A stretch of DNA of 54,256 nucleotides from Patescibacteria group bacterium (GTDB taxonomy: Bacteria; Patescibacteriota; Microgenomatia; UBA8517). Shown one piece after another: positions 11,879 through 43,255 of this stretch; the stretch's first letter is position 1, and every line of letters starts with the position of its first letter. The DNA lies in NCBI GenBank assembly GCA_018823885.1, contig JAHJHG010000007.1, positions 1-54,256 of the forward strand, in the 5' to 3' direction. The position numbers were made by a program, and so were the translations under genes. The notes beneath the pieces were generated by a model, which saw only the letters and a list, made by a program, of their open reading frames with translations, was not told the origin of the DNA and ran no database searches.

Positions 11879-11903
11879 GTTATTTGTTTATTAACCAAAA
11901 AAC

Positions 11904-25253: not shown

Positions 25254-26302
25254 TTTCCTAAAACCCCAGAATATAACTTCGCAGTTTGTTTTGCGGCTTT
25301 ATCCCAAGAAAACTTATCTACTCTCTCTTTGCCCTTCTTTGACAACAAAGCCCTTATTTCAGAACTATTAGCTAACTTCAAAATCTTCTCTGCAATATCT
25401 TTAGTATCTTTGGGATTAACTGTAACAGCAGCGTCCTCTGCAACCTCAACCAAAGCTTGTGTTTTTGATATTAAAACAGGAGTTCCGCAAGCAAATGCTT
25501 CTAACACGGGAAGACCAAATCCTTCGTAAAGGGAGGGTTGACAGTAAAGAGTAGCTAAATTATATATAGCTTTCAATTCTTCATCAGGAACATATCCTAA
25601 TCGCAATATTTCCGAGTCTTCAGCATATTTCTCAAAAAATTTTGCAAATTCCCTATTTTCTGGATGCTCTTTGTCAAAATCTTCACTTGCCACTTGTTTC
25701 CCTACCATGACTAATGAAATTTTAGCCAGCTTACAAGCATCGGCCAATCTCAATATATTTTTATTGTAATTAACATCTCCAACATATAGTACAAATTTAT
25801 CTGGTAGTTTATATTTCTTAGCAATTTCCTTTAATTCTTCCGCCTCTTTCGGGATAGGACTATATATTTTCTTAGAACCCTCATAAATGACTCTGATCTT
25901 TTCTTGAGGAATGTTTAAAAACCTCACAATGTCTTTTTTAGATGTTTCTGACACGGCAATAATGACGTCGACTTTTTTAATAAGCCACTTTTGGATAATA
26001 AATCTTAATTTCCCTTTAATTCCTGAAGGGTACTGCTTGGGATAAATTAGCGGAATGAGATCGTGAATTGTAACAAAGGTTGTTATTTTTTTAAAAAAGG
26101 GAAGAGTAATAAAAAATGGGTGAAAATATGGATAGTGAACAATATCGTATTTGGAAAGATTTGTTTTTTTAAAATCCACCGTCTCCACGCTCAAGCCCTT
26201 TATCTTTCTTAAATACTTAACTAAAAAGGCAGTGTAAGTTCCCACTCCCCTTATCGCGTGACCTCCAGTTAATGGACCTGAATCTATGGCTACCTTAATC
26301 AT
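25250..26302 (-). CDS. Glycosyltransferase family 4 (MtfB-like)
   Basis: RGVGTY, TIHDLIP, AVSETSKKD, PSLYEGFGLPVLEA; start moved to ATG 26302 (ATGA overlap). Confidence 0.9.
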   Translation of the reverse strand: MIKVAIDSGPLTGGHAIRGVGTYTAFLVKYLRKIKGLSVETVDFKKTNLSKYDIVHYPYFHPFFITLPFFKKITTFVTIHDLIPLIYPKQYPSGIKGKLRFIIQKWLIKKVDVIIAVSETSKKDIVRFLNIPQEKIRVIYEGSKKIYSPIPKEAEELKEIAKKYKLPDKFVLYVGDVNYNKNILRLADACKLAKISLVMVGKQVASEDFDKEHPENREFAKFFEKYAEDSEILRLGYVPDEELKAIYNLATLYCQPSLYEGFGLPVLEAFACGTPVLISKTQALVEVAEDAAVTVNPKDTKDIAEKILKLANSSEIRALLSKKGKERVDKFSWDKAAKQTAKLYSGVLGK

Positions 26303-27177
26303 CTTTTTACTAAATATCGCCAATATGCTCTAGGAAACCTCAAGGCTGAGAAAAAAGAAAAAACAATTCCCTGAAAACCATCCAGTATTCCTTTGTGTCT
26401 TATCTGTGTCACGAAAAACCACCCAATAGACTTAATAAAATAATATTCGATAAATTTAATAGGGTTTTTCCCCACTTTATCTCTCTTTAACCCATCCGCT
26501 ATCAAATCAATATATTTACTATTTCGCTTTAAATATCTTTCAAAGGTTGGGTCAGCCATATGAATTAGATCATTTTGCAACCAACCCACCTTACCGTTCA
26601 CAACCATTAGTTCATGAACATCTTTGGCTGGGAAATACGCCTTACCATTCTTTACCAACCTGATTACCCCATCGGGATAAACTCCACCATACTTTAAATA
26701 TTTTCCAAGAAAATAATTCAATCTGGGAACAAAAAAGCCAGCATACGGTTCATTATCTTTACCAATTGTTCCATCCCTTTCGTCCAGTAATCTTTTGTGC
26801 TTATTAAATAATTTTTGTTTCTTTTCTGAAAATGATTTTTGGTACATGCCTATTTCCTCATCAGACATCTCAATTACTTTTATTATTTCTTTCGCTAAAG
26901 ATTTACTTAATCTTTCATCAGCATCAATCTGCAATATCCAATCATACTTAGCAGCAACTAATACTTTTTGCTTATTGATATGAAATATTCTTGGATTAGT
27001 GGTTTTTATCACTCTCGCCCCAAATTCTTTGGCTATTTCTCTGGTTCTATCGGTCGAACTACCATCAACAACAACTATTTCATCAGCAATATCTTTCACC
27101 GATTCCAGACAATCACCGACATTCTTTTCCTCATTGTAGGTTGATAAAACTACCGATAATTTGTTTTGTTTCGTCAT
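26299..27177 (-). CDS. GT2, WaaE/LgtF-like beta-glycosyltransferase
   Basis: TYNEE, VDGSSTDRT, IDADE, GGVYPDGVIRL, VHE, GILDG; start moved to ATG 27177. Confidence 0.9.
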   Translation of the reverse strand: MTKQNKLSVVLSTYNEEKNVGDCLESVKDIADEIVVVDGSSTDRTREIAKEFGARVIKTTNPRIFHINKQKVLVAAKYDWILQIDADERLSKSLAKEIIKVIEMSDEEIGMYQKSFSEKKQKLFNKHKRLLDERDGTIGKDNEPYAGFFVPRLNYFLGKYLKYGGVYPDGVIRLVKNGKAYFPAKDVHELMVVNGKVGWLQNDLIHMADPTFERYLKRNSKYIDLIADGLKRDKVGKNPIKFIEYYFIKSIGWFFVTQIRHKGILDGFQGIVFSFFSALRFPRAYWRYLVKR

Positions 27178-27178
27178 A

Positions 27179-28831
27179 TTAATTAGCCACAATTTCAAAT
27201 GCAGGCTCTCCATTCGGAGAGTATATCGTTTTGACTATATTTGCGTGCTCTGGTATCTCGTCATCCGTTCCTATAATTAAACTTCTCGGACTATTTGGTG
27301 CTTCTTGGTCGTAGTCTATTGGTCTGAAGTAATATTTGTCAAAATTATCAACTGTCGAAAACCCATATTTGTCCCTCCCAGATAAAACATGATTCTCCTG
27401 AAACTGTGCTGGAGGATACTTCAAGTAAAAAAGCAGCAACATATATGGCTGATCATACCTAGTTGTAATTATCACCTCATCATATTTGCTTTCCTCTTCT
27501 TTTATATACGCTGTAAGTTCTTTTAGTCCATATTGAGACGAATATGGATATTCTTTGGCCATGTGGACCCAATACATATGTAGATATCTTGCAAACTGCC
27601 AGGAAATAATCAAAAAGAATAATACAAAAATTGAATTAAGTAATGCTTTTTTATGGACAATCTTGCGCAACCATTTCGAAAGAGATATCAATCCATAAGC
27701 CGATATGACCACCAAAGGAATTACCATACTCTGGGCTCGAAGCGCATGAGGTGATTGAAAAGTTAGGGCCGCCGCAAAAGGAGCAATAACAAGCCAAAGT
27801 ATAATTGGCGACCAACCTTTCGGTTTCTTAGCAATAAAAACCAAACCAGCCACAACAAACAAAATATCAAAAAGATACATCAATCCTGTTTCGGGCACCC
27901 TATTTCTTTGAATCTCATCACTGGACAAAAATAAAAACTCTCCCCAAAAGTGCCTTGCCCAGTTATCGGCAAACGCTAGGCTATAATTTACCGCTTTATT
28001 GTGAAGTATCCTTGTCGGTAGTGATTGAAAATCAGCATGTTCACCCCTAAGTTCATTTATTCTGGCAAGCGGCCCCGGATCAGCGAAAAGGCCTACTCCT
28101 GCCACCCTAGATGTAACCGCAGGTCCGGCGAAATCTATCATTAGCGGCGTAAGCACAACTAAACCGATAATTCCGGCGATTACGGCTCCCTTAATATTCC
28201 CAATTATTTTCTTTCTATATATTATTGCCAACCCAATGACAAGAAGTGGGACAACAATACGTGCTGCGTGGTATGTGTAAAGAGAAAAAACAAAAAACAA
28301 TGAAGAAAGAATCAGCAGTTTTGGTTTTTTAAAAGATCTTATAAATAACCAAACACCAATAGTCATAAAAAAGGTAGCCGCGTTTACTTCCCACCCGCCG
28401 CGGGAAAAATGAATGTGCCAGGAAGAAATAGCTAGAAAAAAACTCGATACTAGAGCCAGTGTATCGTCTTTAAACAGCTCTTTAACCAACAAATATAGTA
28501 TCAATACTGTGGCCACCCCCAGAAGTGCCCCAGGGATTCTTACTGCCCACTCTGTTAGTCCCAAGAGTTTAACAAATGGCAAAACGAGATAGAAATAACC
28601 TCCTGGCTTAAAATCATTGAAAGATTGAAAATGGACTGGCCAGGGATTGCTATGTTCGTCCAATCCAGTTTCGATTAGGGAATAGGCGTTATATGCAATG
28701 GCGGCCTCATCGGCATTCAGAGCTGGATAATCGGCCAAACGATAAAACCTTAAGAGAAATGCCAAGGCAATAATTGATATCAAGACTATCTTCTTGTACT
28801 TATATATATTTATCTTTTTAAATCTTTTCAT
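27179..28831 (-). CDS. ArnT/PMT-like GT-C, array copy
   Basis: NADEAAIAYNAYSL, FNDFKPG, WHIHFSR, ILHNK, PHALRA, SQYGLKE. Confidence 0.85.
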   Translation of the reverse strand: MKRFKKINIYKYKKIVLISIIALAFLLRFYRLADYPALNADEAAIAYNAYSLIETGLDEHSNPWPVHFQSFNDFKPGGYFYLVLPFVKLLGLTEWAVRIPGALLGVATVLILYLLVKELFKDDTLALVSSFFLAISSWHIHFSRGGWEVNAATFFMTIGVWLFIRSFKKPKLLILSSLFFVFSLYTYHAARIVVPLLVIGLAIIYRKKIIGNIKGAVIAGIIGLVVLTPLMIDFAGPAVTSRVAGVGLFADPGPLARINELRGEHADFQSLPTRILHNKAVNYSLAFADNWARHFWGEFLFLSSDEIQRNRVPETGLMYLFDILFVVAGLVFIAKKPKGWSPIILWLVIAPFAAALTFQSPHALRAQSMVIPLVVISAYGLISLSKWLRKIVHKKALLNSIFVLFFLIISWQFARYLHMYWVHMAKEYPYSSQYGLKELTAYIKEEESKYDEVIITTRYDQPYMLLLFYLKYPPAQFQENHVLSGRDKYGFSTVDNFDKYYFRPIDYDQEAPNSPRSLIIGTDDEIPEHANIVKTIYSPNGEPAFEIVAN

Positions 28832-30477
28832 AATGGCTCTATTATTCTAAAAGCCGGGTTAGTATTCAAATAGTTAATTTCCTTAATTAATTTAAACTGC
28901 TCCGGATCACTGGAATCTTCAACCGGAATCCTTATTGTGTCGGCAACAAATAAACTTCCTTTTTCACCCCGATTAACTGACCAGTCAATCGGCGCAAAAT
29001 ATATATTATCTAATCTTTCTACTTGCCCCACATCTCCTACCGCACTTTCTTTGAGTTTTGCTTGAGCCTGATACTTTGCTGGACTGTATTTTTGATAAAA
29101 CAGGAAATAAATATATGGTTGAGCATAGGATTGCTGCACCTTAATAGTTTCATAATTAGATTGAATAGGAGTAACTGTTCCTACAATTTGTTTGTAACCA
29201 TACTCCCAACATTTTGAATCATGTTTTGACAGATGGACAAAATATGCGTCTAGATAATAAACATAATTGAGCAAATATATTACCGCCAATCCTCCCAAAA
29301 TAATTTTTTTGTGTTTCACAATTTTGTTAAATAGAAAAAGTAATCCAAACGAAGACATTAGCACCAAGGGAATTACCATGTTGTAACTTCTTACTGCATG
29401 TACCTGATCTCTAGATAAAGCGGCAGGAAGAGGAGCAAGCAACAACCATAGAAAGATAAATATCGATTCTTTTGACCTGGAACGAACCAGAACAATAAAC
29501 CCAGAAATAATCAAAAGCAAATCTGTGAATATAAACATGCCTGTATAGGGAGCCGAATGTCTTGGATTTTGCCAATCGCCCTCAAAGAATAAGAATCTAC
29601 CAGTAAAGTGATTAAACCATCGACCCAAAACTCCCCTTGTAAAATTTACTCCTTCGGAATGAAACAAGTAATAGCTTAAGCCCCCTATTTTTTCCTCACC
29701 CTGATCAAGAAACTGTTGAATATAATCAGTGGGCCTTGGATATGAGAAAACACTGAAAACCTCAAGTCTTCCTGTTTTGCCTTGGAAAAAACCAAGCAAT
29801 ATTGGAAGTGATACCAACAATCCTATTAAAAAAGCAGTTGCTAGCGTTTTCTTCTCGAATTTAATCACGTCTTTAAAATATATTATTCCCAAAACAACCA
29901 ACACTATTGCCGTTGAAAGCTTCGCCCCCTGATATGTAATAAGTGTTAGAGCAAAGAAAAAGGCCGAATAAAATAAATGTTTTTGTTTTTCAATTGCTTT
30001 TACAAAAAAGTAGATACCAAGAAGGGTGAGGGTTAGAGAAACATTAATTTCCCATGCGCCCCTAGAAAAGTGGATATGCCAGGGATTAATTGCAAGCAAA
30101 AAACTTGAGACAAGGGCTATTTTTTTGTCTTTAAAAAACTGCAAACCAATCATATACATCAAAAATACAGCCAATATTCCAAATGCAGCACTAGGCAGTC
30201 TTACAGCAAATTCTGTCAGTCCTAAAACAGCCACAGCGGGTACGGTCAAATAGACATAAAGACCGGGCTTAAAATCACCAAAGGATTTAAAGATAATCGG
30301 CATAATCTTTCCGTATTCATCTTTACCCGTTTTTAAAATAGAGTAGGCGTTATAACCCAAAGAAGCCTCATCGGGTGCAAGATGAGGAGGAGTACTCCCC
30401 AAATTCCACAATCTCAACACCGACGCCAAAAGCAAAATAACAAAAATTATGTTCTTCTTATTTAATAGTTTTTTCAT
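28828..30477 (-). CDS. ArnT/PMT-like GT-C, array copy
   Basis: APDEASLGYNAYSILKTGKDEYG, FGDFKPG, WHIHFSR, VHAVRS, WEYGYKQ; likely start ATG 30477. Confidence 0.85.
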   Translation of the reverse strand: MKKLLNKKNIIFVILLLASVLRLWNLGSTPPHLAPDEASLGYNAYSILKTGKDEYGKIMPIIFKSFGDFKPGLYVYLTVPAVAVLGLTEFAVRLPSAAFGILAVFLMYMIGLQFFKDKKIALVSSFLLAINPWHIHFSRGAWEINVSLTLTLLGIYFFVKAIEKQKHLFYSAFFFALTLITYQGAKLSTAIVLVVLGIIYFKDVIKFEKKTLATAFLIGLLVSLPILLGFFQGKTGRLEVFSVFSYPRPTDYIQQFLDQGEEKIGGLSYYLFHSEGVNFTRGVLGRWFNHFTGRFLFFEGDWQNPRHSAPYTGMFIFTDLLLIISGFIVLVRSRSKESIFIFLWLLLAPLPAALSRDQVHAVRSYNMVIPLVLMSSFGLLFLFNKIVKHKKIILGGLAVIYLLNYVYYLDAYFVHLSKHDSKCWEYGYKQIVGTVTPIQSNYETIKVQQSYAQPYIYFLFYQKYSPAKYQAQAKLKESAVGDVGQVERLDNIYFAPIDWSVNRGEKGSLFVADTIRIPVEDSSDPEQFKLIKEINYLNTNPAFRIIEPL

Positions 30478-32137
30478 ATATTTCAAAGGCTGGTACATCA
30501 TTTAAGAACTTTATAGTATCAAGCTTATCCCATCCATAAGGATAATTCCCAGGACTGGTAATTAATAAGCAACTAGAATCATTACAATCAATTTCCTTCT
30601 TACTTTCCAATACAAAAGTTGCGCCTTCGCTTGGCATCTCCCAATCGTTTACAAAATATAACTTATCAAATGCATCAACCCAGTACCAATCCGTTTGATG
30701 AAACCGAATAAGATTTTCATCATTTCGATAATCACTTGGATTCCATGGCCAAAAATATAAGAAAAATTCGTGTGGCTCTCCGTATTTTTTAGTTACAATA
30801 ACTTTATCGTACTGATCATAATTCTGCTTAACATAGGAAACAGCTTGTTCATATCCATACTGCCATGACCACGAATAATCCTTTCTATAATCTCCGAAAT
30901 ATTCAAAAAGATAATTCCTTGCGAAAGCGGCAAGAATAATGATGTAGGCAACAATCAATAAGCTTCTATATTTCTTATCAAACCACTCAATAAGAGCAAT
31001 AAATCCCGATGCGCTAATTATCATAGGAATTGGGAGCATTGTTATCGCTCTCAATACATGAGGCGCTTCCCTTGTTAAACTTGATGGAATTGGTGCCAAG
31101 AAAAGCCAAGTTAATAACAAAAGAGAACCTTTGTTTGGTTTTTTGATAAGCACAACCAGTCCTATCAGGAAAAAGAGTAGATTGACAATGTATATTAGCC
31201 CATGACGAGGAACGCTAAATTGATAATGACTTCCTCCTTCATAAAACAAAAATTCTGGAGAAAAATGAGAAAACCAATTCGAGGTAAATTGAGTTACAAA
31301 GTAAGTGCCTTTGTTATAAACCGCTCTTGCCAACAAAGGAGATAGTTCAGAAAGGTTCCTTCCCTCATTTATTTTCGTAATCGCACCTTCATCGATAATA
31401 GCCACCCAGCCATACCTTGCTTGGCCCGTGGGGTTTAGCAATTGAGAGAACATCGGCACAAAAATGATCAAGGCAAGAATAGTACTGAGAACAACAAACT
31501 TGCTCTTCTTTTTCCAAACCGCCAACAATTCTTTCTTATATATAAATTTCAAAGCTACAAGAAGAAGTGGGACGAAAACACGCGCAGAATTATATGTCCA
31601 CACCGACAATCCCAAAAGAATTACTGAAATCGGTAGCCATTTTGTTTTTTTAATTCCAATAATAAAAAGGTAAATTCCAGAGACGATGAAAAAAAGCGAC
31701 AGGTTTGCCTCAAAGGCTCCCCTAGACAAAAACAAGCTCCATGGTTCAATAGCGACAAGAAAAGCTGAAATAAGAGCTACTTTTTTATTGATTAACTCTT
31801 TAGCAAGAAGGTAGGTAAAGATAACCACTCCAATGCCCGCAAGAATTGAAGGAAGTCTCACCGCTAATACACTTAGGCCCAAGAAAAACTCGGAAACACT
31901 TGTTAAGTAAATGTACACAGGAAGCTTGTAGTCTCCATATGCCCTAAAAATCGCAGGAAAACTTACCCCCCACTCATCTTTTCCCGTTTTTAATATCGAA
32001 TAGGCATTATATCCATGAGAAATTTCATCCCAGTTCAAAGAAGGGGGCACTTTTGAAATAGCCATAAACCTGAGAACAACGGCCACAAGAAGAATAAGGA
32101 AAAACAAACCATACTTTTTTACTAACTTATTTAGCAT
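30458..32137 (-). CDS. ArnT/PMT-like GT-C, array copy
   Basis: NWDEISHGYNAYSILKTGKDEWG, YGDYKLP, PHVLRA, WQYGYEQ. Confidence 0.85.
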   Translation of the reverse strand: MLNKLVKKYGLFFLILLVAVVLRFMAISKVPPSLNWDEISHGYNAYSILKTGKDEWGVSFPAIFRAYGDYKLPVYIYLTSVSEFFLGLSVLAVRLPSILAGIGVVIFTYLLAKELINKKVALISAFLVAIEPWSLFLSRGAFEANLSLFFIVSGIYLFIIGIKKTKWLPISVILLGLSVWTYNSARVFVPLLLVALKFIYKKELLAVWKKKSKFVVLSTILALIIFVPMFSQLLNPTGQARYGWVAIIDEGAITKINEGRNLSELSPLLARAVYNKGTYFVTQFTSNWFSHFSPEFLFYEGGSHYQFSVPRHGLIYIVNLLFFLIGLVVLIKKPNKGSLLLLTWLFLAPIPSSLTREAPHVLRAITMLPIPMIISASGFIALIEWFDKKYRSLLIVAYIIILAAFARNYLFEYFGDYRKDYSWSWQYGYEQAVSYVKQNYDQYDKVIVTKKYGEPHEFFLYFWPWNPSDYRNDENLIRFHQTDWYWVDAFDKLYFVNDWEMPSEGATFVLESKKEIDCNDSSCLLITSPGNYPYGWDKLDTIKFLNDVPAFEIYEKTIK

Positions 32138-33776
32138 TTCCTTTACTTGTATCTACAAAAATGAATCCCAGTTCCCCACTCTTAAAATATATCTTTTTAA
32201 CAATCATTTCCTCTGGAACCTCCTCGATAGGGAAATCCCAGGGAGCGGCAATAAATAGCGAATTTGGATATTCATATCTATCTTGCTTCCAATACGGTCT
32301 TTTAATCCGAATATTCTCTGTTGTTCTTGTATCAAGATACTCCACAGGATCATATTTACAATAAAAAAGGACATATAGATGAGGGAGTCCAGTGATATCA
32401 GACTTAACCCCAAAAGACTCTGAAATAAATACGTTGTCATATTTATCCTTGTTCTCACATGCGTGAATGGCAATATCTTTATATCCATACTGCCAATATT
32501 CAGAAAAGAAGCGAGGTGAATGATTGGTATATATGTCAAAGAAATAAACAAAATTAATAAACAAAACCACTACATATAAGGCTAGCATTTTTGGCCTTTT
32601 TAGTTTCGCTGCAATAAATTCAAATCCACTTGCCATCAAAAGAGCAAAAAACGGAAACCACACTAAGGCCCTCAAAGGATGCTGTTCGTTCATCGTCAAG
32701 GAGGCCGGCAAAGGTCCAGCAAAAAACCAGAAGAGTGCAAGCTTCCTTATTTCTTTGTTTCTAGATCGAATTAAAGAATAGATACCCATTAATATAATCG
32801 GAAGATCCACAAGGAAAAGAAAACCTAGTCCAGAATATCCCGGAGGAGTAAATTGCATCCCCTTCCAAAACCAAAGCCGTAAATCAAAATAATTAAAATA
32901 TTTGCCCAACCAGTGTCTAAATATTAAATAAGCATTGTTATCAAAAATCAACTCTTTAACATTTTCGTATCCTTCGATGTGTAAAATCCCCGTCAAAGAT
33001 TGTTCTCTGATTATCGAGGTTGATATCGCTCTTTCTTTTATTGCAGGGGTGAAAAATGTTAAATTCAAAAACGGTATGGCGAAAACCAAAACCACTAAGG
33101 CAAAATATACAATATGTTTTTTCGTTTCAGGCTTTGTGAATTTTATTCGGTCTTTATAAATATAAAATAATACCAAAACCAATAATGGGACAAATACCCG
33201 CTCTGCATGATAACCCCATACCGCTACGCTAAAAGCTATTGCGCTACCAATTAATTGAAGTTTATTTTTATCCTTCGTCCATTTAATAAATAGCCAAACC
33301 CCAAGTGTTGTTAATATCATGGCTGTCAAGCCAGCAAAACTTCCTCTTGAAAAATGAACCCCCCATGATACTAAGGCAACCCACAAGCCCGTCATTATTG
33401 CCGATAACCAAGATAATCGCATAGAGCGGATAAAGAAAATAAACAAAATACTCGAAAGCGCAGCAATAAGGGCAACATGGAAGCGCACAGCAAATTCATT
33501 CAGACCAAATAAAGCAATTGAAGGAACAGTCAAGTAAATATCAACAGGAGGTTTGTAATCCCCAACTGATTTAAATGCGAGAGGCAACAATTCTCCAAAC
33601 TCATCACGTCCTGTTTTTAGAATTGAGTAGGCATTATATCCCACAGAAACCTCGTCCATAGAAAGACTGACTGGATACTGTGACAGTTTCCAAAATCTCA
33701 CAATAAGAGCAATAACAAAAACGACAATTATTGCTCCCAGTATTTTTATATTTTTCTTTTTTAACAAGTTAGCCAT
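32127..33776 (-). CDS. ArnT/PMT-like GT-C, array copy
   Basis: SMDEVSVGYNAYSILKTGRDEFG, VGDYKPP, QHPLRA, WQYGYKD. Confidence 0.85.
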   Translation of the reverse strand: MANLLKKKNIKILGAIIVVFVIALIVRFWKLSQYPVSLSMDEVSVGYNAYSILKTGRDEFGELLPLAFKSVGDYKPPVDIYLTVPSIALFGLNEFAVRFHVALIAALSSILFIFFIRSMRLSWLSAIMTGLWVALVSWGVHFSRGSFAGLTAMILTTLGVWLFIKWTKDKNKLQLIGSAIAFSVAVWGYHAERVFVPLLVLVLFYIYKDRIKFTKPETKKHIVYFALVVLVFAIPFLNLTFFTPAIKERAISTSIIREQSLTGILHIEGYENVKELIFDNNAYLIFRHWLGKYFNYFDLRLWFWKGMQFTPPGYSGLGFLFLVDLPIILMGIYSLIRSRNKEIRKLALFWFFAGPLPASLTMNEQHPLRALVWFPFFALLMASGFEFIAAKLKRPKMLALYVVVLFINFVYFFDIYTNHSPRFFSEYWQYGYKDIAIHACENKDKYDNVFISESFGVKSDITGLPHLYVLFYCKYDPVEYLDTRTTENIRIKRPYWKQDRYEYPNSLFIAAPWDFPIEEVPEEMIVKKIYFKSGELGFIFVDTSKGNAK

Positions 33777-34408
33777 AATGCCCTACTTATGATAAACACA
33801 CCATATATGATTAGTAATCCGATTATTAAATTCCTTTTCTTGCATTCATTAATAAGAAGCTCTATCCCCTGCGAAGCAATATAAATATAAAGCAATAGGA
33901 CTGGAAAAAGAAAAACAAGATTCCTTGCCCCAGCCAAAAACCCAAAAAGAGGAAAAGCTAATAATAAGAAAAGTGGCTTAAATTCTTTTTGTTTCGCCAG
34001 TTTAATCAATCCAAAAACCCAAAAAACAAACGCAAAAAAGGGTACTGGTTCAACTCCTGGAGGTGAAAATTCTGTACCATCACCAGCTTGAAAATATATC
34101 CTTGGCGACAAGAGAGAAAGGTATTCAAAAGAGTTGTCAACCAAAACCATTGCTTTGTTGTAATATAGTCGGGAAATTAATTCTTCCTTTTCTTCGCTAA
34201 AAGCATTCCATCTCATCTCCTCAACGTATCTCAGCTTCTCATCTGAAAATATCGAAGTAACTTTGCGTTTGACATTAATAGGAAAATTTACCAGCTCTAT
34301 CGAAGCGTTAATTGGTTGAAAAATTACCCACCAAAACCCTGGAGACAAAAGTAATAAAAGAAAAAAATATATTCTCTTGTGAAGGATTTCACTTATTTTT
34401 ATGTGCAT
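33761..34408 (-). CDS. Miniature membrane protein resembling the central loop/TM region of the array GT-Cs
   Basis: RLYYNK...EYLSLLSPRIYFQAGD matches R.hNK...Y...F.P.FLF..G of neighbours; lacks the DE motif and C-terminal domain; overlaps both neighbours. Confidence 0.65.
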   Translation of the reverse strand: MHIKISEILHKRIYFFLLLLLSPGFWWVIFQPINASIELVNFPINVKRKVTSIFSDEKLRYVEEMRWNAFSEEKEELISRLYYNKAMVLVDNSFEYLSLLSPRIYFQAGDGTEFSPPGVEPVPFFAFVFWVFGLIKLAKQKEFKPLFLLLAFPLFGFLAGARNLVFLFPVLLLYIYIASQGIELLINECKKRNLIIGLLIIYGVFIISRALWLTC

Positions 34409-36110
34409 AAAGCTTTGTAACCGTATCTACTATATATATTGATGGTTCGTCATCTGGATAATAAAATACCATCAACGGATCTGTTACGCCGGGGAAATCC
34501 TCTGGTTTTCCAACAAAAACAGCTACCTCCTCCCTATCGGTTTCCCAATAGAAATTTTTGAAAGTGTAATTCCCCAAACTATATTCAGGAAGCTGATCGA
34601 CCCAAAGCAAATTATTTTCCTTATATAACCAACCTTTCGTTGCCTCTTGATAATCAAGAGGGTCCCACTTGTTGGCATAAGCAACAAATATTTGCGGCTC
34701 TGACAATTTCTTACTTACAATTATTTTTCTATCAGGAGCAACATTTTCTGCCAGCCACTGGGTCGCCTCAAAATGGCCATATAACATTGCCTGGGCCGTC
34801 TTTTTCGGAGATTGGACAACCCAGTCTTCAATAAACATGGCAAAGAAGATTAAAACTATTGCTACATACCCTATCGTCAATTTCTTTAGTATTTCTTTGC
34901 CATACTTTTGTCTAACGGCATCATATAAGCTGATTGCTCCAAAAGCTAAAATAATCTGTATGGCTGGCAGCATAATCACCGCCCGATTACCTGCATAGCC
35001 TGGGCCTGTAGCCAAAGCTGCCGGGATTGGAGCGAGAAACAACCAAATAAGGATTATTGATAGAAACTTTTTCTCCTTAAATTTAGAAAGTGAATAGACA
35101 AACCAAGCCAGAAATGGTAATTCAAACCAATAAAGCATGCCTCGTCCGGGAATCATTCCATACGTTGCCTCGGCTGGCCCATGAGTAAATAAAAACTGCG
35201 GGGAAAAATACAGTAAATAATTACTCATAAAGCGCCTGGCTACAAACAAAACCTTGTTGTGCATAAGCCTAGCAAGGATCGGGTTCATGCCAGATAAAAC
35301 GGCTGTCACTCTTTCTATTCCTGCCGCTTCCATAGCTCCCTTAAAAAGGCTAATATCTTTTACTCTCTCGCCTGCTCCTTGCAAAAAGGTATAAGACATT
35401 AAACCAAGAAAAATTCCCATTATTCCCAGTGGAATTAATAATTCTTTTTTCTTTAACTTCAATAATTCTTTTCTGAAGAAATACACCAACACCACAATCA
35501 TTATTGGCGTAACAAGCTTGGCGGAATGATAAGAGAAAAGATTTAGACCTAAAATAATAGCTGACCAAATTAATTTTTTCGGTTGTTTTATCCCTTTAAT
35601 GAAAAGGTATATCCCCAGTGGCATTAGTAATGTTGTTAAACTTGCTTGAAAGGCTCCTCTACTCATAAAAATATGCCAAGGAGAAATCGCCAAAAGAAAA
35701 CTTGCTACAAGCGCTAATCTTTTGTCTTTTGATTTTGTTCTTTTCTTGTTTAATTTTTTAAGCTCTTTAATTAACAAATAGACAACATAGACCGCAGCCG
35801 TACCAGCAAGAGCATTGGGAAGTCGAATGGCTACTTTAGTAAGGCCCAAAGTCGCAATGAAGGGAGTGGCTATGTAGGCATACAGAGGAGGCTTATAATC
35901 ACCAAAGGATTCAAGAACGAGGGGGAGAGTATGTCCCCACTGATCTTTTCCTGTTTGAATCAATGAATAAGCATCATAACCGTCAGAAGCTTCGTCCGGC
36001 GTAAAACCATAGGGGTATGTAGACAAAGAAACTACCCTCAAGAAAAACGCCAGGGCAAGAATTATAAAAATATAATACTTTTTATTCAGTAATCGGCCAA
36101 TAACTTTCAT
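34389..36110 (-). CDS. ArnT/PMT-like GT-C, array copy
   Basis: TPDEASDGYDAYSLIQTGKDQWG, FGDYKPP, WHIFMSR, RLMHNK. Confidence 0.85.
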   Translation of the reverse strand: MKVIGRLLNKKYYIFIILALAFFLRVVSLSTYPYGFTPDEASDGYDAYSLIQTGKDQWGHTLPLVLESFGDYKPPLYAYIATPFIATLGLTKVAIRLPNALAGTAAVYVVYLLIKELKKLNKKRTKSKDKRLALVASFLLAISPWHIFMSRGAFQASLTTLLMPLGIYLFIKGIKQPKKLIWSAIILGLNLFSYHSAKLVTPIMIVVLVYFFRKELLKLKKKELLIPLGIMGIFLGLMSYTFLQGAGERVKDISLFKGAMEAAGIERVTAVLSGMNPILARLMHNKVLFVARRFMSNYLLYFSPQFLFTHGPAEATYGMIPGRGMLYWFELPFLAWFVYSLSKFKEKKFLSIILIWLFLAPIPAALATGPGYAGNRAVIMLPAIQIILAFGAISLYDAVRQKYGKEILKKLTIGYVAIVLIFFAMFIEDWVVQSPKKTAQAMLYGHFEATQWLAENVAPDRKIIVSKKLSEPQIFVAYANKWDPLDYQEATKGWLYKENNLLWVDQLPEYSLGNYTFKNFYWETDREEVAVFVGKPEDFPGVTDPLMVFYYPDDEPSIYIVDTVTKLYAHKNK

Positions 36111-37806
36111 ATGTATTTGGTAGCAATCCTTCCTTAAATCTTAAATCTACATCCTTATTGTATTCTAATCTTTCTGGCAAGGCCATTAATATATCTCTTT
36201 CAATTAAAGGGAGAAACTCTACAAGGATGATGGCTGGCTGTTCATCCCTAAACCTAATCACTTCCACAACATTGGCATTCTTAGGCACCTGGTAACCAAA
36301 ACAAACATAAAGGGTGTCTTCCTTTCCTGCAGGGGGGCACTCATAAGGCATATTAAAAATAATCTTGTCGAATTTCGTCACTCTTACCCCATTCGCAAGA
36401 GCCTGAGGAGCAAAATCTGATTTCTCTATAAACTCTTCTGGATGAACTTTGTTGTAAAAAAGGTAGGGAATATAATGACCGCCAGACATCACTATATTTG
36501 AGTAATCATCATAATTATTGTTCACTACCTCAACCATTTCTTTTAATCCCACGTCGCTATACCATGGGTGGTGATATTTCTTATGCACCAAATATTGATG
36601 AGAGAAATATAGAAAATTGAAAAAGTAGGCAACCAAAACTAGGGGTAACGCATACTTTCCCCATTTCTTTATATTGGAAATGGAATATATCCCTAAAGCA
36701 ATAATAAGTGCGTATGCATAAACAAGAATAATCGCCCTTGTTGTACTTCTAGATTCAATCACCAAAGAAGCAGCAACTGGCCCAGTCAAAAGCAAAACTA
36801 AAGGAATAAGTTTCTTTTCTTTTTTAAGTAATAGAAATATAGAAAGTAATCCCAAAAGAAACAGGGGTGCTTCTATTAAATACAACAGTCCTACATCCGG
36901 AATCGAATGCCTTTCCGTTCCCGAAGTCGTTTGGACAAAAAGAAACTCGGGATCAAAATATGAGGTATATCTAGAAAAAAAACCAAGTCCAGCTGAAACA
37001 ATTTTATTATGAAACGCTCTAGTTACAATCAGAGGGGTACCAGCCCTATTGTCCTCTGTAAATTGCTCTATCAACTTTGGTTTATTAAATAAAAGAGAAA
37101 AGTCTTGGGATCTTGCTCTGCTTTTGGGAGACACCAGAGACAGGGCCACCACTACTATTGATAAAACTACCAATAACAGGGCCCTAAAGCGTTGTTTCTC
37201 GGGAATCTTTTTGTACAAGACCAGAGACAAAAGAATATATACAATTGGCATATATACCCTGTATGCCTGGTATGAAAGAATCGCTAAGACATAAAATACT
37301 AAGGTTAAAATAGTGTTTTTCCTGCCTCCTTTTCTTAACCACCGCATTAGATAAATAATTGAAGTAATGGCAAAAAGCGCCCCTAAGACGTTGTTGTAGG
37401 CCACTCTTGAAAAATGAATATGTGTTGGAGCTACTGCCAAAACAAAAGCACAAAGAAGAGCAAATTTTTTCTTCTTTAAGATTTCCAAAGCCAAAAAGTA
37501 AATAGCAATAACCGACAACGCACCTGCTAGCGCCGCTACAATTCTTGTTGAAAAAGGATTTAAACCTAAAATACCAACTGGTATTGCCGCAAAATAAGAA
37601 TAAAGACCGTATTTAAAGTCCCCTGCTGACTCAAAATATAAAGGGAATTTATTCCCATATTCATCGGATTGATTAACGAGAAGAGAATATCCGTAGTAAC
37701 CAAGCGCCATTTCATCCTCATCAATAGCTTCCGGAACTTGTGCCAAATTCCAAACACGAAGAAAGAGTGCTAAAACGAAGATTAAACCCAAAATCCAGCG
37801 CTTCAT
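36082..37806 (-). CDS. ArnT/PMT-like GT-C, array copy
   Basis: DEDEMALGYYGYSL, AGDFKYG, HIHFSR, RAFHNK. Confidence 0.85.
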   Translation of the reverse strand: MKRWILGLIFVLALFLRVWNLAQVPEAIDEDEMALGYYGYSLLVNQSDEYGNKFPLYFESAGDFKYGLYSYFAAIPVGILGLNPFSTRIVAALAGALSVIAIYFLALEILKKKKFALLCAFVLAVAPTHIHFSRVAYNNVLGALFAITSIIYLMRWLRKGGRKNTILTLVFYVLAILSYQAYRVYMPIVYILLSLVLYKKIPEKQRFRALLLVVLSIVVVALSLVSPKSRARSQDFSLLFNKPKLIEQFTEDNRAGTPLIVTRAFHNKIVSAGLGFFSRYTSYFDPEFLFVQTTSGTERHSIPDVGLLYLIEAPLFLLGLLSIFLLLKKEKKLIPLVLLLTGPVAASLVIESRSTTRAIILVYAYALIIALGIYSISNIKKWGKYALPLVLVAYFFNFLYFSHQYLVHKKYHHPWYSDVGLKEMVEVVNNNYDDYSNIVMSGGHYIPYLFYNKVHPEEFIEKSDFAPQALANGVRVTKFDKIIFNMPYECPPAGKEDTLYVCFGYQVPKNANVVEVIRFRDEQPAIILVEFLPLIERDILMALPERLEYNKDVDLRFKEGLLPNTYESYWPITE

Positions 37807-37813
37807 TCTCTTG

Positions 37814-37819
37814 ATTATA
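37814..37819 (-). promoter_or_regulatory. Putative -10 box (TATAAT) overlapping the upstream stop codon, 7 nt before the first gene of the GT-C array
   Basis: Minus strand reads AAGC-TATAAT-CAAGAGA-ATG(37806). Confidence 0.45.
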
Positions 37820-39083
37820 GCTTTGCGGGCTTAAAAAGTCGAAGAAACCGAGCATAGAAGTTTACGAATAAACCAAAGTTTACAAAACCCAATATTCTTG
37901 GCAATAGCCTGTCGTTGGCGGAAAGCAAATTGATTAACCACTTTATATTTGGTATCCACCAGAAATGATATAGATTAACCAAACTTAACCCTGAAACAGC
38001 CCAATACAGAGGTAGTAATTTTTTATCCATTACTACCAGTATTGTAAAAACAGGGAAAAGTGGATAAAGATATCGTTCGTGCATGTTTGTCAGTAACATA
38101 AAAGAAGAGAATGAAATAATTGCTAAAGCCCAAAAAACAGACTTATGATCTTGTTTCTTGAAAACTAGATAAATAGGATAAATTAGTGAAATACCAAATA
38201 TTATTAGTCCCCACACTTGGTATGTGAGGGGTCCCCACATCAATGTGTGCGGCTGTTCATGAATTCCAGTTATAGCCGCCCAAATATTAAACGCATTAGC
38301 AGTGATTACTTGTAATTGTTCTATAAAAACCTTTTTATTATAAATCCCAATAAGCCACCCAAAAGGTTCTCCCCTGGAAAAAGGTAGGGTTAATGTCCCA
38401 ATTATCAAAAGTGGTATTGCCAAAGATTTAGCAATTTCTGTCAGTTTATATTTTTGCCGCAAGGCAATAATGGCAAAAACCGGCGCAAAAATGAGAAGCG
38501 AGGCTTTTATATAAAATGACATAAGCAATGCCAATACTGCCCACATTAGTTTTTTCTCAAGAAGCAGGACGAATGCTAGTAGGGCGAAAAAATTAATAAT
38601 TGCATCTGTCTGGCCCCAAACAGCTGAGTTATACCAAATAATAGGATTAAAAAGAAAAAGAGTTGCTCCAAAAATTCCAAGCTTTACTTTCTTCTTTTTT
38701 TTGAACATCCAGTAAATTAAATATGCTATTCCTAAATCTGCCAAAATTGCTGGGAGTTGAAGTAATGCTTGATATCCCCGTTCTTCAAGAAAAGTAACAA
38801 TGTTTGAAGGAAATAGTGGAATACTTATATTGATTTTCCAGAAAAATGCAAAGATAGCTTGATACAACTTATATATGCCGGCAAAAATATATGCGGTTCC
38901 AGGGGGCTGATTGGGCCAAGTGAAACTCCAAACATTGGCTGTATAAAACTTCGCAGGGCCATAATCCCAAAAACGAATTCCCCAATCAACGTGATTATTA
39001 AGATCAGGATGCCAAGTTATAAACGCCAAAACAAATCTGAAAATAAATGCTAAAAGTAAAATCTTGATAATTTTTTTCTTCAT
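37815..39083 (-). CDS. GT-C membrane glycosyltransferase, ALG6/ALG8- or GT87-like
   Basis: WHPDLNNHVDWG, NQPP, WGQTD, NAFNIW, MHERY. Confidence 0.75.
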   Translation of the reverse strand: MKKKIIKILLLAFIFRFVLAFITWHPDLNNHVDWGIRFWDYGPAKFYTANVWSFTWPNQPPGTAYIFAGIYKLYQAIFAFFWKINISIPLFPSNIVTFLEERGYQALLQLPAILADLGIAYLIYWMFKKKKKVKLGIFGATLFLFNPIIWYNSAVWGQTDAIINFFALLAFVLLLEKKLMWAVLALLMSFYIKASLLIFAPVFAIIALRQKYKLTEIAKSLAIPLLIIGTLTLPFSRGEPFGWLIGIYNKKVFIEQLQVITANAFNIWAAITGIHEQPHTLMWGPLTYQVWGLIIFGISLIYPIYLVFKKQDHKSVFWALAIISFSSFMLLTNMHERYLYPLFPVFTILVVMDKKLLPLYWAVSGLSLVNLYHFWWIPNIKWLINLLSANDRLLPRILGFVNFGLFVNFYARFLRLFKPAKL

Positions 39084-41521
39084 TTATTCTTCTTTCTCTC
39101 TGTAGTAATTTGCGAAACTACTAACAAGGATACCATTATTATGAATGAAGTCGCACCAATTATTAAGCCGTATTTAAATGAATTCGGCTCATACCTTATC
39201 TCCAAATGATGTTCTCCGGCACCAATTGGAACAGCCATAAAGGCATAGTTCGCTCGATAAAGGGTTACTTTTTTGCCATCAACATAAGCCTTCCATCCCG
39301 GAAAGTGAGTCTGGGAAATAACAAGCAAGCTGTTTTCTTCACTTACAACGTCTGCTTTTGTTATTAGCGGGCTAAAGCTGATGCTATTAATATCAACCTC
39401 CGTAGTTAAAGGAACAATGTCGGGAACAGTTTCAAGAATCACTGTTTTCGATAAATCAGTGGAAAGTAATAAGTTTTCAAATTCTTCATCTGTTTTTGCT
39501 AAAACAAAATTCTCTACGGGGTACATCCGAGGAAAAGCTTCGGGGTTTTTTAATACCATTGTTCTTTCAAATTCAAAGAGTTTTTCCAAGTTAGACTCTT
39601 CAAATCTCCAGCTTAGATCACCATCATATTCGGGAGAAGCATTTTTCCATTTAATAACCACAATGTTTTCTATTCCGAGAAAGTCATATAAAGAAGAACT
39701 TATGTTTTCAATTTCTACATATCGACTAAAAGGGACCAGCCCTCGCCCATTCAGGAGGCTCATAAACTTGTTGTATCTTATTGGATGAATTGCATCCTGG
39801 CCAGTTGCCGAATAGACTTGATAAGGCATCCACATATTAGGAGGCAATATCGGTCCCCTCTCACGATCAAATTTCACTGAGTCTTGTTTTTGCAAATATT
39901 CAGTTAGAGGAGTGTCCGGATACAAAAGCTCAGGAGAAGAGAAAGAATTATATTTGGAGGAAAATCGGTAAAGATCAAAGAGGGTTAAGGAAAATATACC
40001 TATCAATATTAAGGTTTTCATTTCCTTGTGTTTTTTAAAAACCGTAACCAAAACAACAACACCGACAATTGAAGCAATCACCATAAATGCAGGCAGAACC
40101 AAATTTCGTAAGCTCACTTGATAACCAATGGCGGTTTGAAAAGCATATAAAGAATCTTCATTAAAAAGAGTAAGTTTTGACAGAAAATCTTTCAATGGTG
40201 TTAAAAATAAGCTGGAAATAAGAATAGGGACAATGATCAGACCAATGAGAATAATAACAGGATACTTAAGTGACTTTTTTTGTACCCTGCCTTTAATTAT
40301 TCTTTCAAGAGAAATACTTGCACCCACAGCGATTGAAAAAGTTGTTATTAAAGCCAATCGCCCCATAACCGACGAAGATATTAAAACAATATTGCTATCC
40401 CCTATAAATTTAGCGATCGGATTTTTAAAGGAAAGCAGTAGGGAAATAAAAAATCCAACCCAGGAAAAAATAAGAAGCTTGTCTTTCTTTTTTCCTTTCA
40501 GCCAAAAACTTATCAAAAAAAGAAAAAGACTTGTCGCTCCTACAAAAATAACGAAATTATCATAAGAGCCAACTGTGGGCCAATAATTACGAGTAGAAGG
40601 ATTGCCAAAATAATCAGGGGCAATGAAAGTAATTAAATTCTGAAGGGGTATGTATTTTACATTCGCTGCGGCTGCCACCTGGTCAACCTGTCGTATCGAC
40701 AATCTTGATGCTTCAGCACCTGGCAAAAGAAGGGGTGACGCCAAGGTAACACCTAAAATAATTGAGCCAACCATATATTTAAAATCACTCGTTTTTAAAA
40801 TTCTTGTTATCCAAACATATATCAGCGAGAATCCTAAAATATAAGTAGTTATTTGCGGATAGCCTGCATAAAAAGACAAAGCCAAACAAAGTGAATAAAG
40901 CAAATAATATATTCTATTCTTTGATGCTTTTTTGAGTGCAAAAAGCATTAAAGGAAAATATAATGCCGAATGAATAAGAGTATTATATTCAACCCAAGTC
41001 ATCATAAATCCAGAAAATCCCCACACCAAGCTTCCATACATCGATGCTTGGCGAGACAGTTTGTGTTCCCGCAAGAAAAGAAACATGAATATTGCCGCTA
41101 ATAAAGGCTGTGCAATGACCTGTAAAGACCAGCCTATATAAAAATCGTTAACCAGCCAATAAATTATATTCAAAGGATATAGGGCGGCTGATTGAAAGTT
41201 TGCCAACAAAGATGTCCCAGAAAGAATATATGGATTCCATAAAGGCCACTCTCCACTCTTCATCAAGTTAACTGCCAACTCCCTCCAAGGATAAATGATC
41301 GAGACAATATCGGAGAAGATAGGATTTTTCACCGGAACACCAGCTGGGAACGAAGTAAGATTTAAATCCAACCATGGATAATATGTTCCAGAGATAATGT
41401 CTGCGGGGATTGGCAGCAACCCCTTAACAAAGAACTTCCAGAAAAATATAAAGGTGATGAATAAAAAAATAGCAAAAGGATAAATTTGGCCTATTTTCAA
41501 TCTTCGCCAATTATTTTTCAT
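39080..41521 (-). CDS. YfhO-family membrane protein (GT-C)
   Basis: 813 aa; WPLWNPYILSG..LLANFQSAALYPLN; C-terminal FPGWKAYVDG..RANYAFMAV..G.H.LEIRYEP. Confidence 0.9.
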   Translation of the reverse strand: MKNNWRRLKIGQIYPFAIFLFITFIFFWKFFVKGLLPIPADIISGTYYPWLDLNLTSFPAGVPVKNPIFSDIVSIIYPWRELAVNLMKSGEWPLWNPYILSGTSLLANFQSAALYPLNIIYWLVNDFYIGWSLQVIAQPLLAAIFMFLFLREHKLSRQASMYGSLVWGFSGFMMTWVEYNTLIHSALYFPLMLFALKKASKNRIYYLLYSLCLALSFYAGYPQITTYILGFSLIYVWITRILKTSDFKYMVGSIILGVTLASPLLLPGAEASRLSIRQVDQVAAAANVKYIPLQNLITFIAPDYFGNPSTRNYWPTVGSYDNFVIFVGATSLFLFLISFWLKGKKKDKLLIFSWVGFFISLLLSFKNPIAKFIGDSNIVLISSSVMGRLALITTFSIAVGASISLERIIKGRVQKKSLKYPVIILIGLIIVPILISSLFLTPLKDFLSKLTLFNEDSLYAFQTAIGYQVSLRNLVLPAFMVIASIVGVVVLVTVFKKHKEMKTLILIGIFSLTLFDLYRFSSKYNSFSSPELLYPDTPLTEYLQKQDSVKFDRERGPILPPNMWMPYQVYSATGQDAIHPIRYNKFMSLLNGRGLVPFSRYVEIENISSSLYDFLGIENIVVIKWKNASPEYDGDLSWRFEESNLEKLFEFERTMVLKNPEAFPRMYPVENFVLAKTDEEFENLLLSTDLSKTVILETVPDIVPLTTEVDINSISFSPLITKADVVSEENSLLVISQTHFPGWKAYVDGKKVTLYRANYAFMAVPIGAGEHHLEIRYEPNSFKYGLIIGATSFIIMVSLLVVSQITTERKKNK

Positions 41522-43251: not shown

Positions 43252-43255
43252 GTTC

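Follow-up and report, generated by a model that had tools for sequence, protein, structure and literature searches.

A conserved array of divergent GT-C glycosyltransferase paralogs in Microgenomates bacteria of the Patescibacteria

The contig JAHJHG010000007.1 of a Patescibacteria group bacterium (GenBank assembly GCA_018823885.1) is 54,256 nucleotides long and encodes a tandem array of membrane glycosyltransferases of the GT-C type, whose seven full-length paralogs are here called P1 to P7. The stretch analysed, referred to below as the window, is the entire contig C7 of a genome of 756,347 bases on nine contigs that is 97.95% complete. The array is old: its copies share 24-36% protein identity with each other, and P1, P2, P3, P5 and P7 each belong to a separate orthogroup that recurs in three families of the same order. 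Among Patescibacteria it is a hallmark of the class Microgenomates. The explanation that probably serves best is that the array constitutes a set of GT-C membrane glycosyltransferases which became sub-functionalised long ago and which would assemble a surface glycan stepwise outside the membrane.

A first-pass annotation of the window had described six full-length, intact PMT/ArnT-like copies at 27179-37806, and the open reading frames (ORFs) and Pfam matches bear this out and place them on the minus strand. The two further copies that it named are also real, P7 as a full-length gene and P8 as the C-terminal half of a divergent eighth member. All the motifs it quoted are recovered in the alignment, both the residue pairs in front of the DE pair (NA, AP, NW, SM, TP and DE, to which P7 adds FG) and the variants of the H..R loop (PHALR, VHAVR, PHVLR, QHPLR, YAGNR and RSTTR) and of the domain junction (SQYG, WEYG, WQYG, WQYG, MLYG and SDVG), together with D(F/Y)K, whose counterpart in P7 is EWRTP. 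A profile made from the seven copies scores P1-P7 at 671-773 bits and all other ORFs of the genome at 97 bits or less, so that chance resemblance is not an issue. The remark that the copies show no long DNA identity holds as well, the longest inter-copy blastn match being 87 bp at 74%, and the two 100% matches are gene overlaps only. That every frame overlaps its neighbours is true, by longest-ORF starts, of P1/P2 (4 bp), P2/P3 (44 bp), P3/P4 (11 bp) and P5/P6 (29 bp), but P4 and P5 are not adjacent, as a previously missed ORF of 215 residues, t215, sits between them and overlaps both.

The P copies are GT-C glycosyltransferases by family profile, by fold and by their DE loop. The Pfam family PMT_2 is above its cut-off of 26.1 bits in P1, P2, P3, P5, P6 and P7 (34.8-43.6 bits); P4 reaches 22.8 bits, below that cut-off, and passes with PMT (PF02366; 28.9 bits against a cut-off of 22.7). 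PMT is above cut-off in six of the seven copies, with matches that begin at profile positions 2-3. The fold evidence comes from P1, which was modelled with AlphaFold2 (AF2) from a 112-row alignment at a predicted local distance difference test score (pLDDT) of 95.8 and a predicted template modelling score (pTM) of 0.94. Compared with solved structures (Foldseek, VIA-align; rows no more than one Z unit apart are ties), the model reaches Z scores of 21-28 to STT3, PglB, ArnT and Pmt4, well above unrelated rows. STT3 gives Z 28.3, ArnT (5f15) Z 26.6 at a root mean square deviation (rmsd) of 4.5 over 418 aligned residues, end to end and with 11-12% identity, and Pmt4 Z 25.6 at an rmsd of 3.3 over 340 aligned residues of the membrane domain only, while Emb and Aft enzymes lie at Z 14-18. 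Beyond the membrane domain, about 115 residues at the C-terminus of the P copies form an outer domain. D41, E42, D58, Y81 and R365 (P1 numbering) are invariant in 112/112 aligned family members, the seven window copies included; this alignment omits six long-branch or truncated rows of 118. The N-terminus is rich in lysine and arginine and is followed in the alignment by the first transmembrane helix (TM1) and then by the DE loop, which according to the positive-inside rule would lie outside the membrane. Relatives of P1 are labelled 'glycosyltransferase family 39 protein' or 'ArnT family glycosyltransferase' in public records, under source names that include Patescibacteria group, Microgenomates group and Candidatus Curtissbacteria.

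The orthology of the individual copies was followed through 30 genomes of the same order, which were searched with the seven-copy profile at E 1e-20 or better. The family is carried by 28 of them, in 4-14 copies each that are mostly in tandem, and the main array was compared in 20 of these 28, picked for arrays on long contigs and drawn from three families. ORFs of at least 250 bits and 450-700 residues from these loci provided 111 rows for the trees, a filter which dropped end-truncated ORFs, a fusion of 1118 residues and weak matches of 150-190 bits. In a FastTree phylogeny of 118 rows, each of the five core copies falls into a clade of its own within which all three families are represented, namely P1 (19 rows, support 100), P2 (20 rows, support 100), P3 (19 rows, support 100), P5 (20 rows, support 100) and P7 (19-22 rows, support 99), and an IQ-TREE mixture model on 58 rows gives support 100 to the printed P1, P2 and P3 clades. 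An orthologous clade for each array position, which the first-pass annotation had put forward as a check, is thus found for these five in nearly every one of the 20 genomes, and orthologs of P4 and P6 are few: P4 has one in a single locus (G005, 54% identity; 1/20 loci), and P6 groups with copies of two genomes (G011 and G002) at 33-37% identity and support 99, and has counterparts in 2-3 of the 20 loci. Clustering of the copies by genome, which the same annotation had listed as an outcome that would speak against old duplications, is not seen; a tree in which the seven window copies are held together is 1742 log-likelihood units worse and is rejected by the approximately unbiased test (p-AU 3.7e-58; 22 rows, LG+G4). 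The proposal that the duplications are old and have been retained is upheld by the spread of the five orthogroups over three families and by the divergence of the copies.

The orthogroups also keep their order. Read in the direction of transcription the core block is P7-A-P5-P3-P2-P1, where A is a GT-C protein of a different family, and this order is complete in 15/20 loci; a further 4/20 are colinear except for one element that is missing, fused or unclassified, and the genes P3, P2 and P1 lie side by side in 17/20. Extra genes occupy two slots, from A to P5 and from P5 to P3, and the window holds the fullest version of the array, with a YfhO-family gene, P6, t215 and P4. The YfhO-family gene, for which no counterpart was found in any of the 20 related loci, is weakly similar to the streptococcal PgfM1/PgfM2 models, far below cut-off. 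One relative (G026, L007:5521-8877, minus strand) has a frame of 1118 residues in which an unrelated multi-pass membrane protein of about 560 residues is joined to a full P3 ortholog (48% identical to P3); the fusion is either natural or due to a stop codon that was missed. When 200 other genomes from the phylum were sampled, the subfamily occurred at E 1e-60 or better in 8/10 genomes of the same class versus 2/190 of other classes; up to seven candidates were scored per genome, and copy numbers from this sample are lower bounds. Nearest clusters in a protein atlas come from several Microgenomates candidate phyla. Position-by-position orthology thus covers the 20 loci of one order, and for other orders the comparison is one of presence.

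All five core orthogroups combine invariant catalytic residues with residues that are fixed in one orthogroup and different in the next. SQYG is found in 19/19 members of the P1 orthogroup and PHALR in 16/19; WQYG (19/19) and NWDE(I/V)SHG (17/19) mark P3; TPDEASFGYD is exact in 15/20 members of the P5 orthogroup (TPDEASFGYDAYS), which has (Y/F)A(A/G)NR in 17/20; and P7 is distinguished by EWRTP (17/19) and by FGDELDVGYH, exact in 14/19 (FGDELDVGYHAYS). Twelve alignment positions are orthogroup-specific in the sense that they are at least 80% conserved inside each of the five core orthogroups and take at least three states among them. Six of these lie within the first outer loop (residues 30-77, 48 of 550), and the others are 309/310, 359/364 beside the invariant R365, and 432 and 461 in the C-terminal domain. 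The systematically varied secondary motifs that had been noticed at the outset are therefore signatures of each orthogroup, conserved within clades, and at the level of the aligned proteins such clade-fixed motifs are a signature of sub-functionalisation. We infer that each copy serves an acceptor or linkage of its own: because the residues conserved around the catalytic loop are peculiar to each copy, each probably forms a linkage different from those of the others or recognises another state of the acceptor. Relaxed selection, the second outcome named in advance as adverse, is not seen either, and selection is purifying where it is measurable. The ratio of nonsynonymous to synonymous substitution rates (dN/dS) is 0.07-0.19 for P1, P2, P5 and P7 in the same-genus pair G026/G019, the sole pair with a finite ratio (synonymous rate dS 0.9-1.6). 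Between the window and its nearest relative in the set (G015, 54-67% identical) the proportion of synonymous differences is saturated (pS 0.76-0.83) and that of nonsynonymous differences is 0.22-0.31 (pN). A metagenome scan with P3, in a collection from which records very near this genome may be absent, found no match closer than 62%.

In the proposed mechanism sugars would first be loaded onto polyprenyl phosphate by cytoplasmic GT2 enzymes, the lipid-linked sugars would then be flipped across the membrane, and the GT-C enzymes would finally add the sugars one by one at the outer face to a growing cell-surface glycoconjugate. A general scheme of this kind, with a GT-A enzyme, a flippase and a GT-C enzyme, has been described (PMC8035078). 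The core enzymes would be P7, the ALG6-like A, P5, P3, P2 and P1, with P4, P6, P8 and the YfhO-family protein as lineage-specific additions. Possible acceptors are a lipid-linked glycan, a wall polymer and proteins.

The protein A would link this block to glycan assembly. It has no Pfam family above cut-off; a profile search against sequences of the Protein Data Bank (PDB) finds glycosylphosphatidylinositol (GPI) mannosyltransferase 1 at E 7.6e-8 and ALG6 at E 7.7e-7. Its AF2 model (pLDDT 90.2) matches ALG6 at Z 29.0 with an rmsd of 3.6 over 394 aligned residues, followed by ALG3 (Z 28.1), GPI mannosyltransferase I (Z 24.2) and PimE (Z 22.0), and because of the match to ALG6 and ALG3 it represents a second kind of GT-C enzyme in the array. 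A is present in 17/20 loci. Flanking glycosyltransferases are conserved too, the GT2 gene directly downstream of P1 in 16/20 loci (best matches 65-71% identity), the GT4 gene beyond it in 13/20 and the GT2 gene upstream of P7 in 13/20 (best 62%). The window contains at least two GT2 genes that resemble polyprenyl-phosphate hexose synthases (21945-22604 and 16574-17257). The first of these aligns over its full length to the polyprenyl-phospho-GalNAc synthase PpgS at 121.8 bits, against an equivalog cut-off of 370, and together with the neighbouring DUF2304 gene it fits the arrangement of a two-part polyprenyl-phosphate sugar synthase, which makes the pair a candidate donor maker. Flippase candidates of the Wzx and GtrA types are present as family matches, the latter as a GtrA domain (GtrA_DPMS_TM, 54.9 bits) at C9:222658-223020, and the genome as a whole encodes two LCP ligases as well as two MraY/WecA-type and three Bac_transf-type initiating transferases.

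Several observations weigh against a stepwise pathway of this kind, or against its generality. Sequential action on a single glycan is suggested by co-linearity and co-conservation, and separate polymers or proteins are equally possible as targets of the copies. Donor, acceptor and product are likewise proposed from context rather than from enzyme activity. The candidate donor maker stands outside the conserved block, and its PpgS-like synthase has counterparts of low identity in 5/20 loci. The P copies are without a characterised close relative as far as sequence comparison goes, since a search of solved structures returned ArnT (5ezm) as the only match (E 1.1e-4, residues 69-229); no curated NCBIfam model is matched above cut-off by A, by t215 or by one of the P copies, and weak matches to Agl23 and to the LA_3751/LA_3752 family lie far below it. 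No copy was found in two of the relatives searched, G001 of the same genus (91% complete, 40 contigs) and G028 (89% complete, 60 contigs), where the blanks are either true losses or loci missing from fragmented bins, and a third genome, G009, has divergent copies only.

A different account, which is compatible with a stepwise pathway, holds that the paralogs are obligate hetero-oligomers like fungal Pmt1-Pmt2 or mycobacterial EmbA-EmbB, so that the array would encode one or a few composite enzymes. This is a possibility to be taken seriously, if held tentatively. The membrane domains of P1 (1-430) and P2 (1-431), one pair of 21 possible, were submitted to complex prediction with a 19-row ortholog alignment each, and the C-terminal domains were cut off both chains so that neither could dock in the other's place. 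The predicted complex scores 0.82, the best of three controls 0.00, and its runs agree in at least 97% of contacts with a partner pLDDT of at least 84. This mark is reached by 116/157 solved complexes and by 2/215 mismatched pairs, a calibration that is rough as our own alignments were used here. The interface is pseudo-symmetric, being formed by residues 257-335 and 411-427 in both chains with 26/32 alignment columns in common, and some of its positions are fixed differently in the two orthogroups, for example R415 and H418 in P1 versus Y415 and D418 in P2. The 4-bp overlap of the P1 and P2 genes, the adjacency of P3-P2-P1 in most loci and the fused frame of G026 are in keeping with such an association. 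The suggestion of a hetero-oligomer made at first pass stands in so far as the P1-P2 pair passed structure prediction, but the prediction does not separate a P1-P2 heterodimer from a family-wide habit of homodimerisation, as close cousins of a true partner also pass. The pass may moreover reflect likeness to solved related dimers (Pmt1-Pmt2 6p25, Pmt4 9i5k and EmbA-EmbB 7bvc), interface conservation (0.67, compared with 0.66 for the rest of residues 235-430) lends no independent support, and the result is that of one truncated pair.

The truncated paralog t215 has neither the catalytic N-terminal loop nor the C-terminal domain, and no Pfam family was found in it. What it keeps includes the counterpart of most of the interface predicted for P1 and P2. 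A counterpart that is 48% identical lies beside the P4 ortholog in G005 (L003:10107-10703), and t215 is for this reason rejected as a fresh pseudogene fragment. The retention of t215 and the G026 fusion fit a physical association and prove nothing. A bolder extension, which is speculative and rather unlikely, would make the array an assembly line in which neighbouring paralogs of the P7-A-P5-P3-P2-P1 block dock pseudo-symmetrically, by means of the last membrane helix and of an outer loop at about residues 257-335, and hand the growing glycan from site to site. The non-catalytic t215, which keeps roughly two thirds of this docking region from its start but not the last helix, could be a scaffold for the co-inherited P4; it would be a bacterial counterpart of the lumenal ALG pathway of the endoplasmic reticulum (ER), in the form of a physical complex that defines an envelope trait of the Microgenomates.

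It is doubtful that the copies are PMT-like protein O-glycosyltransferases, each dedicated to its own set of proteins that are secreted or exposed at the surface, for instance pilins or S-layer proteins. The passing PMT matches speak for this possibility, as does the DE pair directly after TM1, which is a PMT-type motif, and Pmt4 has the lowest rmsd among the top structural matches. No copy has a MIR domain (Pfam, E up to 0.01), and a search of the whole genome gave no MIR match either, a blank that is uninformative because the control genomes gave none. Bacterial PMTs may be without MIR, so its absence rules out the eukaryotic type only. The length of the copies and their small C-terminal domain, however, align end to end with ArnT and not with PMT, and the conserved block includes the ALG6/ALG3-like A, whose solved relatives act on lipid-linked glycans. 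We know of no precedent for a genome of about 800 genes with five to eight protein O-transferases.

An arrangement in which each copy is the GT-C arm of an independent multi-component decoration system, adding different side-chain sugars in no fixed order, is likewise unlikely. Many GT2 genes are found in the window, the two or more hexose synthase-like ones among them, and one GT-A, one flippase and one GT-C enzyme per system is the norm described in PMC8035078. The variable slots, too, hold extra GT-C genes in different genomes (P4, P6, YfhO and unclassified copies). Against this, the strict co-linearity of five orthogroups over three families and the gene overlaps suggest one co-regulated pathway, and fewer candidate lipid-sugar synthases are seen than GT-C genes. 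That the array arose by recent amplification, or that its genes are duplicates in decay on which selection is relaxed, can be dismissed as extremely improbable, for t215 is the only degraded-looking piece and even it has its counterpart in another genus, and the divergence of the copies without DNA similarity, the orthogroup trees and by-genome topology test that rule out recent amplification, the invariant catalytic residues and the low dN/dS all stand against it.

The preferred reading of a stepwise pathway can be placed beside several known systems. ArnT is the lipid A 4-amino-arabinose transferase and is encoded by a single gene in the arn operon. It (5ezm/5f15) resembles the P copies in being the sole solved protein found by sequence, in its size of about 550 residues and in its layout of a GT-C membrane domain with a small C-terminal outer domain, which allows end-to-end alignment. 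It differs in its low structural-alignment identity to P1 and in that the P copies form a multi-copy array. The lipid A acceptor is moreover lacking in this host, because the genome, nearly complete as it is, has no match to LpxC in a search that found LpxC in four Gram-negative control genomes. The absence of LpxC and the distant sequence relationship speak against the P copies being ArnT proper. The PMT enzymes (Pmt1-Pmt2 heterodimer 6p25, Pmt4 homodimer 9i5k) share with the P copies the Pfam family, the DE pair in the first outer loop, a membrane domain that aligns at an rmsd of 3.3-4.3 and, by prediction, the dimer, whereas the P copies carry a C-terminal alpha/beta domain in place of MIR and occur as five to eight tandem paralogs in a 0.76-Mb bacterial genome.

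Tandem paralogous GT-C genes are also a feature of mycobacterial embCAB and of the Aft/Mpt/PimE enzymes, which carry out distinct steps of wall-polysaccharide synthesis outside the membrane with polyprenyl-phosphate sugars and form dimers. The logic of the proposed mechanism is similar to that by which mycobacterial arabinan and mannan are assembled. PimE is in addition a structural neighbour of A. The Emb chains differ in their length of 1034-1063 residues (549-577 in the P copies) and their large carbohydrate-binding outer domains, they match P1 more weakly (Z 14-17), and embCAB comprises three tandem copies as opposed to a conserved block of six GT-C genes with extras. In the ER lumen, ALG enzymes of the GT-C type act as a series at the far side of the membrane, where each takes one defined sugar from a polyprenol-phosphate donor and adds it to a lipid-linked glycan (PMC13503287). 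These enzymes (ALG3/9/12 and ALG6/8/10) resemble the present system through the ALG6 and ALG3 matches of A and through the stepwise logic proposed here; they are eukaryotic with dispersed genes, whereas the P copies belong to a PMT/ArnT/STT3-type branch and a lipid-linked glycan is only a candidate acceptor. Gram-positive multi-component systems (CsbB/GtcA/YfhO, GtlA/GtlB and GacI/J/K/L) consist of a GT-A enzyme for the C55-P-sugar, an optional small membrane partner, a GtrA or Wzx flippase and a PMT_2 or YfhO GT-C enzyme, as PMC8035078 sets out. Candidates for all these parts are present in the genome; the difference is that each Gram-positive system has one GT-C enzyme that decorates a preformed polymer, whereas many GT-C genes are chained here in a class-wide block.

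Table 1. Genes of the array and of its surroundings in the 54,256-nucleotide window (aa, amino acid residues; HMM, hidden Markov model).
Feature	Position	Strand	Characteristics
P1, GT-C glycosyltransferase, 550 aa	27179..28831	-	Signature NADE / PHALR / SQYG; Pfam PMT_2 43.6, PMT 36.1 bits
P2, GT-C glycosyltransferase, 557 aa	28828..30501	-	Signature (T/A)PDE / (V/I)HA(V/I)R / W.YG; Pfam
P3, GT-C glycosyltransferase, 559 aa	30458..32137	-	Signature NWDE(I/V)SHG / WQYG; PMT_2 43.4 bits
P4, accessory GT-C glycosyltransferase, 549 aa	32127..33776	-	PMT 28.9 bits; DE motif retained
t215, truncated paralog, 215 aa	33761..34408	-	Family HMM positions 222-406, E 5.7e-12
P5, GT-C glycosyltransferase, 573 aa	34389..36110	-	Signature TPDEASFGYD / (Y/F)A(A/G)NR / M.YG; Pfam
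P6, divergent accessory GT-C, C-terminal extension, 574 aa	36082..37806	-	PMT 37.6 bits
A, ALG6/ALG3/PIG-M-like GT-C, family distinct from P copies, 422 aa	37815..39083	-	Profile and fold
YfhO-family GT-C, 813 aa, between P7 and A	39080..41521	-	Pfam YfhO 70.3 bits
P7, GT-C glycosyltransferase, 577 aa	41518..43251	-	Signature FGDELDVGYH / EWRTP /.HATR / WH.G; Pfam
P8, C-terminal half, divergent eighth member, 5'-open at contig end	53147..54256	-	Family HMM 253-519, 97 bits
GT2 glycosyltransferase, directly downstream of P1	26299..27213	-	Glycos_transf_2 77.2 bits
GT4 glycosyltransferase, conserved flank	25250..26323	-	Glycos_transf_1 101.9 bits
GT2 glycosyltransferase, upstream of P7	43256..44068	-	Pfam 101.5 bits
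A paralog, multi-pass membrane protein, 424 aa	44065..45339	-	31-36% identity to A orthologs
PpgS-like polyprenyl-phosphate sugar synthase (candidate, GT2)	21945-22604	-	NCBIfam PpgS 121.8 bits, below cut-off
DUF2304 small membrane protein	21604-21948	-	Pfam DUF2304 63.5 bits vs cut-off 25.5
PMT_2 GT-C, other subfamily, 486 aa	23793..25253	-	PMT_2 37.7 bits; array HMM only 35 bits
Wzx-type protein	2841-4127		Polysacc_synt 78.9 bits

The array lies in a part of the genome that is rich in related genes (Table 1). Nearly the whole contig is glycan-related, with GT2, GT4 and GT-C glycosyltransferases, methyltransferases, a DegT aminotransferase, a GNAT acetyltransferase, Wzx and DUF2079. The genome has 22 PMT_2 matches, 11 of them on C7, two on C3, two in the last 9 kb of C5 and four at 226-234 kb of C9, and 19 of the 22 fall within one region of about 80 kb, a tenth or so of the genome, in which C3 and C5 are placed by end overlaps and the position of C9 is inferred. 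The parts that adjoin the window are C3, C5:47-57 kb and C9:222-238 kb. End overlaps of 138-141 bases join contigs C2, C5, C3 (reversed) and C7 in this order, and none was found between C9 and C7. A continuation of C9 into C7 at its high end is suggested by the split gene P8, for which a candidate N-terminal half with the DE motif (C9:237474-238190, plus strand, HMM 7-207) is located at a contig end.

All listed ORFs of at least 120 residues in the window are on the minus strand except one, at 17389-19035. This is among the large ORFs at 10868-15804 (minus), 17389-19035 (plus) and 50594-52312 (minus), of 336, 445, 319, 536, 548 and 572 residues, for which searches at E up to 1 gave no Pfam family above cut-off; a simple hydropathy scan shows several hydrophobic stretches in that of 572 residues. 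Scans of 25000-44500 for promoters and terminators returned 70 promoter-like sites (mean of shuffled sequences 62.7) and 20 terminator-like sites (shuffled mean 16.3); the promoter-like sites are thus no more numerous than expected from shuffling, and the scans do not inform on operon structure. The best promoter-like match in the array (37814-37842, minus strand, 10/12, TCGACT-17-TATAAT) covers the final bases of A together with the short gap in front of P6.

The enzyme family itself is already known, and databases annotate its members as GT39 or ArnT-like. No description of the conserved multi-GT-C block and its orthogroup structure was found in full-text literature searches, whose scope left subscription journals and supplements outside. 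One genome study counts '29 genes of glycosyl transferases' in a member of the Microgenomates (PMC7143001), and the terms glycosyl, glycan and polysaccharide do not appear in the main text of another paper (PMC11665869).

With residues around the catalytic loop that are fixed in a different way in each, the five orthogroups represent a natural experiment in the change of GT-C specificity, and they single out proteins to be expressed and used in the analysis of glycans. The genomes of Patescibacteria are minimal and the cells are believed to live in attachment to others, and to our knowledge almost nothing is known of their surface chemistry. Because the block has been retained at such cost in a streamlined genome of 756 kb, its product is suggested to be important, and its role is probably to keep the envelope intact or to make contact with a host.

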